From contig JBIPLF010000005.1 in assembly GCA_044368015.1 (NCBI GenBank), positions 2,985 to 66,984 on the forward strand: a stretch of 64,000 nt of DNA. The letters are read 5' to 3'. Below the pieces are notes generated by a model. The model was not told the DNA's origin. It saw nothing but the letters and a program-made list of their open reading frames with translations, and made no database searches. Source of the DNA: Rickettsiales bacterium (GTDB lineage: Bacteria > Pseudomonadota > Alphaproteobacteria > Rickettsiales > RI-342). Positions 4,404-5,678 of the stretch are shown piece by piece; within the stretch, counting starts at the first letter, position 1; each line of letters starts with the position of its first letter. The translations under genes were made by a program, and so were the position numbers.

Positions 4404-5678
4404 TCAATTGGGTACCAACCGCCTAAGGCAACGCGCCCGCCCATCAGCCCCGATTGCAACATACCAACCAGCGGCCAACTGAGCTGGTGTGCATACGGCA
4501 GCAGGCATCGGTGCAATCAGCTTACGGCACACGGGCTGCCCATCACTTCCCAGCTTGGGCGAACCATCCGGGTTCAACTGAGAGGGGGTACATACCGGCA
4601 GCACGGGCTGTGATCCAGACAACTTGCGGCACACGGGCTGACCATCGGCCCCGATGATCGGGTTACCACTGGCATCCAATTGGAAGCTGCGGCAAACAGG
4701 CAACAGCGTATCACAAACTTTCAGGCCATCGGCATCCAACACATAACTACCATCCGGATTTGTCTTATACTTGGCACATGCTTTCTGCACTTTTTCGCAT
4801 ATAGGCCTGCCATTGGCATCCAACACCGGCTTGCCATCCGTACCTAGCTTGTACTTTGCGCAGGTAAGAGAGGTCACCTTGCATACAGGATCACCGTTGG
4901 CATCCACCGCAGGGCTACCATCCGCTCCAATTTGCGAGGGAGCGCAACTGGGCAGTTGTTTTTGACACACAGGCGCCCCATTGGCATCGGTCACCGGATT
5001 GCCGTTGGCATCGAGCTGATTTTGAGCGCAAATGGGGCGTACCCCAAATTTTTTGCATTTTGGCTTGCCGTTAGCATCCAAAACCGGATTTCCTGCGGCA
5101 TCCAATTCGTATTGGAAACAAAGGGTGGTAGGCGTAGTCAGGACAAGACAAATCGGTTTACCGTTAGCATCTAGACGCTGTGATCCATCAGGATTGGTGG
5201 CCCATTTCCCGCATACAGGAGCAGGCGCCGCACCGGGCGTTCCGAAGGGAGACGGACTCACACCGGGAGTTGCCAGAGGCTTTGGCGCAAGCGTGATAGC
5301 ACCGATGGGACTCCCCGTCATACCCGGCGTCGAACAGAGGGCGGAAACGCCGAATACTTGCGTCGCAATTTGCGAGGCCGACGCCATGATGATAATCCCG
5401 CAGAGGGTAATCACCACCATCCCCCAGGAAACACGGCTGTAAAGCGCCAGCAAACCAAGCGTTACCACTCCGGCAGACGCGACCGCAGGCCCCATATCCA
5501 GCACGACCAGATCCACCACATCGCAAATCAGCGCGGCGAGTGCCTGCGCATGGGCGACGTGCGCCCCGGCAAGAAAAAAGGTAACTCCCAAGGCCAGCAC
5601 CAATCCCGCCTGAGCGGCGCATGTCCGGCGGGAATGCTTCCGGTTTTGCATTTGCGATGGGTTCACTGCTTTTGTCAT
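4404..5678 (-). CDS. VirB2/TrbC-like pilin domain fused to a Pro-rich linker and 9 Cys-pair repeats
   Basis: 424 aa with SD AAGGTAGGGG. The N-terminus (signal peptide ending AHAQA, then LICDVV...LALYSRVSWGMVVITLCGIIIMASA) is a paralog of 4024-4329. The C-terminal ~270 aa consist of repeats C-x4-LDANGxPVxDANGxPVC. Confidence 0.75.
   Translation of the reverse strand: MTKAVNPSQMQNRKHSRRTCAAQAGLVLALGVTFFLAGAHVAHAQALAALICDVVDLVVLDMGPAVASAGVVTLGLLALYSRVSWGMVVITLCGIIIMASASQIATQVFGVSALCSTPGMTGSPIGAITLAPKPLATPGVSPSPFGTPGAAPAPVCGKWATNPDGSQRLDANGKPICLVLTTPTTLCFQYELDAAGNPVLDANGKPKCKKFGVRPICAQNQLDANGNPVTDANGAPVCQKQLPSCAPSQIGADGSPAVDANGDPVCKVTSLTCAKYKLGTDGKPVLDANGRPICEKVQKACAKYKTNPDGSYVLDADGLKVCDTLLPVCRSFQLDASGNPIIGADGQPVCRKLSGSQPVLPVCTPSQLNPDGSPKLGSDGQPVCRKLIAPMPAAVCTPAQLAAGWYVAIGADGRARCLRRLVPN

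Follow-up and report, generated by a model that had tools for sequence, protein, structure and literature searches.

A VirB2/TrbC-type pilin carrying a nine-unit cysteine-bounded repeat tail in a Rickettsiales bacterium, a candidate for display on a type IV secretion pilus

How the pili of type IV secretion systems (T4SSs) recognize a target cell is poorly understood, and this role is usually credited to tip proteins of the VirB5 type; variant pilins are a feature of the Bartonella Trw system. VirB2-type pilins enter the inner membrane so that both of their termini face the periplasm (PMC2653234); once F-like pili have assembled, the far C-terminal end lies on the outer surface and the inter-helix loop lines the lumen (PMC10939261). 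In the X-T4SS of Xanthomonadales, VirB2 carries short, variable C-terminal extensions that may decorate the pilus surface or be processed off, a choice that was left open, and the mature protein has 80-104 residues as compared to 64-70 in F-type pilins (PMC6536674). Rickettsiales possess multiple variable virB2 paralogs at loci that lie apart from most of the T4SS machinery; these pilins vary mostly around a conserved Cys in the N-terminal part and at the C-terminus, and they have been proposed to be surface-exposed and to set host or target specificity (PMC3556328). Here we describe a pilin gene from a 64,000-nucleotide stretch of a Rickettsiales bacterium (contig JBIPLF010000005.1 of assembly GCA_044368015.1, positions 2,985 to 66,984; the whole of this stretch is called the window), whose product joins a VirB2/TrbC-like core to nine cysteine-bounded repeats.

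The fusion gene is one uninterrupted open reading frame (ORF) of 424 amino acids (aa) at 4404..5678 on the reverse strand. Our best reading, drawn from sequence comparison, is that it represents the variable-tail b paralog of a two-pilin VirB2/TrbC set, and that this set is part of a P-type T4SS lineage carried on the chromosomes of uncultured bacteria. The first-pass annotation of this DNA had placed the fusion at 4404-5216, which covers the tail (residues ~155-424), but the gene extends to 5678. Its proposal that a pilin core and nine Cys-pair repeats share a single ORF is borne out by the ORF call, by Pfam and by the unit count, and the Pro-rich linker that it described between the two, PKPLATPGVSPSPFGTPGAAPAP, is present. 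The gene is composed as follows.

5680..5689 (-), Shine-Dalgarno-like sequence AAGGTAGGGG, immediately 5' of the ATG at 5678, read from the sequence
5547..5678 (-), leader (signal) peptide, residues 1-44, ending in AHA ahead of QA, from inspection and alignment to the leaders of clade pilins
5334..5546 (-), mature VirB2/TrbC pilin core, residues 45-115, from Pfam PF04956, a clade profile and alignment
5214..5333 (-), Pro/Gly/Ala-rich linker, residues 116-155, from composition
4428..5213 (-), nine-unit C-x20-C array, residues 156-417, from inspection and a shuffle test
5148-5213, 5055-5120 and 4965-5030 (-), units U1-U3, C-x20-C
4881-4946, 4797-4862 and 4713-4778 (-), units U4-U6, C-x20-C
4629-4694, 4527-4592 and 4428-4493 (-), units U7-U9, C-x20-C
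4404..4427 (-), C-terminal end LRRLVPN and stop codon, from the ORF call

The core is recognized by the Pfam TrbC/VirB2 family (PF04956) at 31.4 bits against a cutoff of 27.9, over residues 24-106, and scores 72 bits with a hidden Markov model (HMM) built from its relatives only, the window sequences having been left out. Chains of the A. tumefaciens VirB2 T-pilus (8cue/8exh) align to it in register but weakly (E=0.02), and its score with the NCBIfam VirB2 equivalog model is so far below the cutoff (20.8 versus 103) that the core is not an equivalog of Agrobacterium VirB2. By inspection the leader has a long basic n-region, a hydrophobic stretch and an A-x-A site. Inspection and alignment further place two hydrophobic helices (~65-80 and 85-108) around a short loop, S-R82-V-S-W, in which Arg82 matches the Arg of the VirB2 FGRAS loop; an AlphaFold2 (AF2) model has helices at 44-59, 65-80 and 85-108, with low confidence. 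The relatives make up what we define here as a Cys-pair pilin clade (P0010, P0012, P0013, P0020, P0021 and others). All of the residues that are invariant in a 16-sequence alignment of this clade, namely C52, W85, G94, A101 and C115 in window numbering, are present in the fusion core. In short members of the clade the second Cys is the last residue or nearly so (L085 a and b, P0039, P0044, P0045 and P0056 all terminate in Cys), and the window tail, which runs for 309 aa after C115, thus begins exactly where ordinary members end. Most of the 58 database proteins with a pilin core matching the clade HMM have fewer than 20 residues beyond it; among the longer ones, P0012 has a 120-aa tail with 16 Cys, P0021 an 81-aa tail with 8 Cys and P0020 a 37-aa tail, and the tails of P0041 and P0079 are of low complexity.

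The clade has further features of its own. One Cys of the invariant pair lies near the mature N-terminus and the other at the C-terminal end (P0013, P0039, P0044, P0045, P0056; L085 7648-8315), and a C52-C115 disulfide linking the termini could replace the head-to-tail cyclization of VirB2/TrbC; no description of this terminal Cys pair, or of disulfide stapling in the clade, was found in the literature. In roughly two dozen of the 58 database proteins, one polypeptide contains two to five complete VirB2-type pilin cores fused in tandem (e.g., P0007, P0015, P0018, P0022, P0025, P0029, P0043 and P0082; L088 1438-1962), and these pose the question of whether they polymerize by some route or are cleaved. 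Among the tailed proteins, P0019 (L002 1672-6381) has 1569 aa, of which residues ~118-196 form a VirB2 pilin core and 1373 residues belong to a tail that contains 50 Cys; its gene lies downstream of ilvC on a contig with a GC content of 0.56, and TrbC is its sole Pfam match.

In the window protein, the linker between the core and the repeats (residues 116-155) has 10 Pro, zero Cys and zero acidic residues, and is without secondary structure in the AF2 model at a predicted local distance difference test score (pLDDT) of ~30. All nine units that follow are exactly C-x20-C, with the consensus CxxxQLxADGxPxLDANGxPVC, and CAQNQLDANGNPVTDANGAPVC is an example of such a 22-residue unit. The Cys pairs are 156/177, 187/208, 217/238, 245/266, 273/294, 301/322, 329/350, 363/384 and 396/417, giving a period of 28-34 aa with inter-unit linkers of 6-12 aa; the last unit, U9, is degenerate. 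Among 20,000 shuffles of the tail, none had nine C-x20-C units (maximum 4) and none had 15 motifs of the DxxGxP type (maximum 5). Tandem Repeats Finder detected zero DNA-level repeat in the array and the mean identity between units is 52% in DNA and 44% in amino acids, which together mark the repeats as old and diverged and not as an artefact of assembly or slippage. We favor pairing of the Cys within units, since the intra-unit spacing is invariant whereas the linkers vary, and since a shifted pairing would leave C156 and C417 stranded. Structure prediction was poor: the full protein reached a pLDDT of 47, and three units modeled with a pseudo-alignment of the other units a pLDDT of 55. Both models have the same per-unit beta-bridge pattern of three strands (E-E-----E-E-----E-E), with turns at the two DxxG motifs, at low confidence.

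A phmmer search run exhaustively over 1.84 billion cluster representatives returned 105 matches in two classes, the pilins and a tail-type class of Cys-less hairpin proteins, and no protein of the same architecture. The tail-type matches, headed by P0002-P0006, P0008, P0014 and P0033, are bacterial and eukaryotic proteins rich in Cys-less hairpin dyads of the LDANGNPVLGADGKPL type, and in a scripted check none of the 105 matches had cysteines bounding the dyad. A three-unit profile searched against 5.8 billion proteins likewise retrieved Cys-less proteins only and no known Cys-bounded family, and no domain routinely fused to VirB2, a possibility raised in the first-pass annotation, emerged from these searches. 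Some of the Cys-less matches resemble the Lipoprotein_15 and beta-flower families, with no single stretch passing alone; the window protein itself has no match at E<=1 to Lipoprotein_15 (PF03640) or beta-flower (PF21784, PF21785), nor to TSP_3, HemolysinCabind, EF-hand or dockerin in Pfam, and reaches 15.1 bits with the RHS/YD repeat (PF05593; cutoff 22, E 0.032), again with no stretch passing alone. A profile search of the PDB gave sub-threshold matches only, to phiKZ087 and to a dyad in heparin lyase I, RLDKQGNPVKDKNGKPVYK (E 0.76). In a scan of JGI metagenomes the three-unit profile found only L084, a thrombospondin-type-3-like repeat protein at 34% identity, which was ruled out as a relative by charge and motif. 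A word-index search with the whole protein was swamped by repeat words, and its one match, an irrelevant beta-propeller, was discarded. The fusion protein had zero matches in a search of genome contigs, and no ortholog with the same tail was found among proteins, genome contigs and metagenomes. Within the databases searched, the C-x20-C unit with its DxxGxP dyad is without a relative and matches no known domain family, and literature searches on the repeat motif and on pilin-adhesin fusions gave nothing relevant. The first-pass annotation suggested that this architecture may not have been described. That view needs narrowing, as metagenomic relatives in the pilin clade have other C-terminal tails, 37-1373 aa long and in several cases rich in Cys (P0012 and P0021 adjoin virB4), but it holds for the particular repeat and its size, which are unique. 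Appended tails on b-type pilins recur in metagenomes and are not described in the literature searched; by sequence, the novelty of the window protein is in its Cys-bounded repeat and the size of its tail, not in being a tailed pilin as such.

The genes on either side of the fusion gene tie it to T4SS loci of its relatives.

4024..4329 (-), short TrbC/VirB2 pilin of 101 aa, 'a-type', ending ...GFGGCA (Pfam 52.8 bits; clade HMM 65 bits)
3955..3994 (-), intrinsic terminator or attenuator past the pilin pair, with a 13-bp GC-rich stem, a UUCG tetraloop and a U-rich tail
5870..7303 (+), divergent Na+/alanine symporter (Pfam), the synteny anchor with the T4SS loci of relatives

The short pilin probably starts 3-4 codons later than called, after a GGAGG, and its cluster representative is the 97-aa version; the terminator hairpin (3965-3994) folds as RNA at -26.2 kcal/mol (z = -5.8), a stability that was equaled in 0 of 200 shuffles. 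The pilins sort by core identity into two paralog types. Those of the a-type (L085_a, L087_a, L088_a) are mutually 40-52% identical, and the short window pilin joins them at 37-44%. Those of the b-type (L085_b, which is P0013; L087_b, which is P0020; P0012, P0021 and P0010) share 43-55%, and this is the type to which the fusion core belongs, with 41% identity to L085_b and 32-34% to the others. Tails are confined to b-type pilins, and in the relatives these are 0, 18, 37, 81 or 120 aa long or consist of a second pilin core. In L001, a pilin with a Cys-rich tail is followed by virB4, trbL/virB6, virB8, virB9, virB10 and virB11; in L085/L086, two pilins are followed by the same series of genes. 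L003, L087 and one contig from the metagenome of the window have virB4 directly after the pilins, as does every relative with downstream sequence (L001, L003, L085/L086, L087). A symporter 64-71% identical to that of the window lies divergently upstream of the pilins in L085, L086, L087 and L088, in the same position and orientation, which indicates that the window locus is orthologous to a chromosomal T4SS locus with the machinery not at the site. Co-encoding with virB4, B6 and B8-B11, as expected of TrbC/VirB2 pilins, is seen in the relatives at the orthologous site and not within the window and ~20 kb beyond it, and we infer that the window lineage lost or moved virB4-virB11 from this site. 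A virB4-linked contig from the same metagenome that encodes P0021 was considered as the missing T4SS and rejected, as L003, a contig from another sample with the gene for the identical protein, has a GC content of 0.49 versus 0.58 for the window.

Given a T4SS elsewhere in the genome, we tentatively propose that the fusion protein acts as a minor b-type pilin showing a disulfide-stapled string of beads on the pilus, as an adhesin or for target recognition; we regard this as a real possibility, though short of probable. In this mechanism, a hairpin of two helices would remain in the inner membrane after Sec export and leader cleavage; its two termini would face the periplasm, as would the 309-aa tail. 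There the 18 tail Cys would be oxidized into nine intra-unit disulfides, and each 22-residue unit with its two DxxG-x-P turns would form a small stapled bead. Carried on the 40-residue Pro-rich spacer, the beads would make a thin string and not a bulky globular domain. The short a-type pilin, apparently co-transcribed with the fusion gene, would be the bulk subunit, and the fusion pilin would be a minority subunit incorporated by the T4SS encoded elsewhere. Because pilin C-termini face the exterior of the pilus, the bead string would then be exposed there, serving as a built-in adhesin or as a module for target recognition. The terminator past the pilin pair would allow the pair to be expressed highly as its own unit, and the expression signals comprise a Shine-Dalgarno sequence, intact ORFs and this strong terminator. 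Display of the tail is topologically reasonable in view of the surface-exposed C-terminus of conjugative pilins (PMC10939261), and the split T4SS loci of Rickettsiales (PMC3556328) provide a precedent for a pilin locus away from its machine. The first-pass annotation had envisaged display along or at the tip of any filament; the surface topology behind that idea is reasonable (PMC10939261), but with no T4SS in ~84 kb, assembly is conditional on machinery encoded elsewhere.

Several observations weigh against display on a pilus. VirB4, B6, B8, B9, B10 and B11 from L085 and L001, used as tblastn queries, had no match below E 0.3 across the 64 kb, and ~10 kb on either side of the window are also without T4SS genes (~84 kb in total). 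The gene order here is b, a, terminator, versus a, b, virB4 in the relatives, which marks the window locus as rearranged. No ortholog that shares the tail was found in the searches above; the low-confidence three-strand meander from AF2 would keep the paired Cys within each unit well separated; and no experimental precedent for a 30-kDa pilin tail crossing the outer-membrane complex was found in the literature searched. The absence of T4SS genes lends some substance to the view that the orphaned pilin serves as an inner-membrane anchor. Its disulfide-rich tail would then have a role in the periplasm or envelope, where it could be a spacer or bind wall or envelope polysaccharide, without ever joining a filament. 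All VirB2-like proteins integrate first into the inner membrane (PMC2653234), and the pilins here precede a terminator and unrelated lower-GC genes at the position where the orthologous T4SS loci have virB4 directly after the pilins and where ~84 kb hold no T4SS gene. An anchor, however, would need neither the clade-invariant pilin residues, every one of which is kept, nor the short a-type pilin, which is retained adjacent and apparently co-transcribed, and split T4SS loci are known in Alphaproteobacteria (PMC3556328); we consider this explanation unlikely, though it deserves attention. Alternatively, the protein may be a pro-pilin that is cut after Cys115 or in the Pro-rich linker, the core maturing normally and the Cys-repeats being released to the periplasm or medium or degraded. 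C-terminal processing and cyclization are established for P-type pilins such as RP4 TrbC (PMC2653234), processing has been raised as an alternative for VirB2 extensions (PMC6536674), and the unstructured 40-aa linker offers a protease-accessible site; moreover, the tail lacks a separate signal peptide and depends on the pilin part for its only export signal. Nine units with strict Cys spacing nevertheless imply a selected, folded product and not a disposable pro-region, and cyclization-type trimming may not apply to a clade whose termini are apparently stapled C52-C115 and many of whose members end there. No TraF-like peptidase was seen among the ~30 of ~55 window ORFs that were scanned, and overall we think such processing quite improbable.

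That the two pilin genes are a decaying, functionless relic of a lost T4SS would fit the missing virB4-virB11 at the orthologous site, the rearranged order, the insertion of foreign-looking genes and the degenerate U9. It fits poorly with two intact ORFs that have good ribosome-binding sites and all of the invariant core residues, with an exact C-x20-C in nine of nine units despite a mean amino-acid identity of 44%, and with the maintenance of a strong terminator, and we see decay as a slim prospect. The recurrent D-x-[DN]-G motifs had led the first-pass annotation to suggest calcium binding as one alternative, and the sole Cys-bounded look-alike in the JGI metagenomes is indeed the repeat protein L084 of the thrombospondin type 3 (TSP3) class, at 34% identity. 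The suggestion does not stand up well: the repeat region has one Asp per turn and is basic (22 D+E and 29 K+R, for a net charge of +7), acidic DxDxDG loops are lacking, and no TSP3, RTX or EF-hand family was matched in Pfam at E<=1, making a calcium-binding module a very poor prospect. Least credible of all, to the point of being close to negligible, is a fusion of two genes created by sequencing or assembly, which the first-pass annotation had itself named as a way for its reading to fail. There is no direct support for it beyond the fact that most relatives stop at the C115 equivalent. The ORF is continuous, and JGI metagenome 3300059473 has a 129.5-kb contig, recorded for two samples, on which the identical protein is called; the array has no DNA repeat prone to mis-assembly, relatives too have in-frame tails, and the tail, having no start codon with its own signal peptide, would not be exportable as a separate gene. 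A 202-kb contig of NCBI GCA_041443065.1 encodes a MurE identical to that of the window and shares the gene order there.

Downstream of the fusion gene the order is short pilin, terminator, p3, DUF6973 gene, dnaK and dnaJ, and Pfam scans of the larger window ORFs identify housekeeping genes such as dnaK, ftsA, ftsZ, ligA, lepA and a Mur ligase.

3578..4018 (-), p3, a small membrane protein of 146 aa from the ATG at 4018, called as 125 aa from the ATG at 3955
2518..3507 (-), DUF6973-domain protein, 329 aa (Pfam PF22322, 32.6 bits)

The p3 protein resembles a signal peptide at its N-terminus, has a membrane hairpin of two helices and belongs to no Pfam or NCBIfam family. It was considered as a third pilin and rejected, with 6 bits to the clade HMM, an hhalign probability of 8% and only a local likeness of its FGKMTWPM to the pilin loop. 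The UUCG hairpin falls within the longer p3 frame (ATG 4018), where it encodes the hydrophobic part of the signal-peptide-like segment; either it is an attenuator inside a coding region, or p3 begins at ATG 3955 without a signal peptide. An unannotated frame of L087 (477-608, +), between symporter and pilin, shows a weak similarity to p3 (36% across 44 aa, with E 0.003 for a tiny database) that is probably spurious. The DUF6973 protein is without a signal peptide and occupies the place that virB4 has in relatives; among 5.8 billion proteins it matched only itself, it has no PDB relative and no paper on it was found. One idea is that it is an effector or toxin gained with the rearrangement. Its gene has a GC content of ~0.48 in a window of 0.58, and GC at third codon positions falls along the locus from values like those of the host to distinctly lower ones, being 0.71 in the symporter, 0.70 in dnaK, 0.67 in the fusion core, 0.63 in the short pilin, 0.53 in the repeat tail and 0.49 in the DUF6973 gene. 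With values below that of the core, both the tail and the DUF6973 gene look like later acquisitions, and this composition suggests that they were added to the locus. The window DnaK is 73-80% identical to DnaK across many alphaproteobacterial orders, which assigns the window to Alphaproteobacteria at class level, and such pilins were near dnaK in 0 of 80 alphaproteobacterial dnaK loci. Elsewhere in the window, the large proteins at 7803-8732, 27332-29841 and 40199-41344 (+) have prepilin-type N-terminal cleavage/methylation motifs, like those of type IV pilins or of the pseudopilins of type II secretion systems, and are otherwise without a family. A 738-aa ORF beside the pair at 27-30 kb (29913-32129) has no family match whatever. 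In the 549-aa protein at 10111-11760 (-), PAP2 / vanadium-haloperoxidase-like domains occur together with calcium-binding nonapeptide repeats of the RTX type, and a 1063-aa ORF at 32247-35438 (+) fuses a GH13 alpha-amylase to a GT5 starch/glycogen synthase and is followed by a second GH13 enzyme.

Returning to the displayed b-type pilin, a VirB5 Pfam match was found in none of the operons seen (L001, L085), and to our knowledge the rickettsial rvh system is likewise without VirB5. If our proposal is true, a second pilin paralog with interchangeable C-terminal modules would be a modular alternative to VirB5-type recognition, and the 309-aa Cys-repeat tail would be the largest ordered example of such a module. 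Its value is limited by its being a single sequence from one metagenome-assembled genome with no T4SS located within ~84 kb. More speculatively, and with a broader claim that we consider unlikely as a whole, the b-type pilin may take over target recognition, with its C-terminus an evolvable dock for thin disulfide-stapled modules and the window protein an extreme case that has nine beads of an undescribed fold; the locus may then live on as a self-contained adhesin cassette that is expressed at a high level and plugs into a T4SS elsewhere. This would raise the mechanistic question of how a pilin with a 30-kDa oxidized appendage passes through the outer-membrane complex, and the 22-residue C-x20-C unit, as an unclassified mini-domain, is amenable to synthesis and quick structure solution.

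Set against described repeats, the window units share the D-x-x-G-x-P turn dyad of the Cys-less beta-hairpin repeats (LDANGNPVLGADGKPL type) but are bounded by Cys, whereas in none of the 105 matches is the dyad bounded by Cys. The TSP3-like repeats of L084, GCAPNQRDTDGDGIVDADDAC, resemble the window units in being Cys-bounded at ~20 residues apart and in starting C-A-P-x-Q-x-D; TSP3 repeats, however, have strongly acidic DxDxDG loops, in contrast to window units that have one Asp per turn, are net basic and match no Pfam TSP_3 model. As for the pilin core, it has the long leader, the two hydrophobic helices and the short loop with a basic residue that characterize VirB2 of the A. tumefaciens T-pilin and TrbC of RP4. 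Those proteins mature to ~70-aa peptides that are trimmed and cyclized head to tail, whereas the window core has a Cys pair near both termini and a 309-aa tail; relatives of the VirB2/TrbC type head virB4-virB11 operons, unlike the window pilin, which has no adjacent T4SS genes. In this last respect the window is like Anaplasma and Ehrlichia, where several VirB2 pilins are encoded apart from most of the machinery (PMC3556328), though these rickettsial paralogs are all small pilins, none of them described with a large appended repeat domain such as that of the window fusion. The VirB2 extensions of Xanthomonadales arise at the same C-terminal site and are likewise variable among relatives, but where these amount to a few tens of residues with no recognizable module, the window tail extends to 309 aa and is arranged in nine ordered repeats of a disulfide type.

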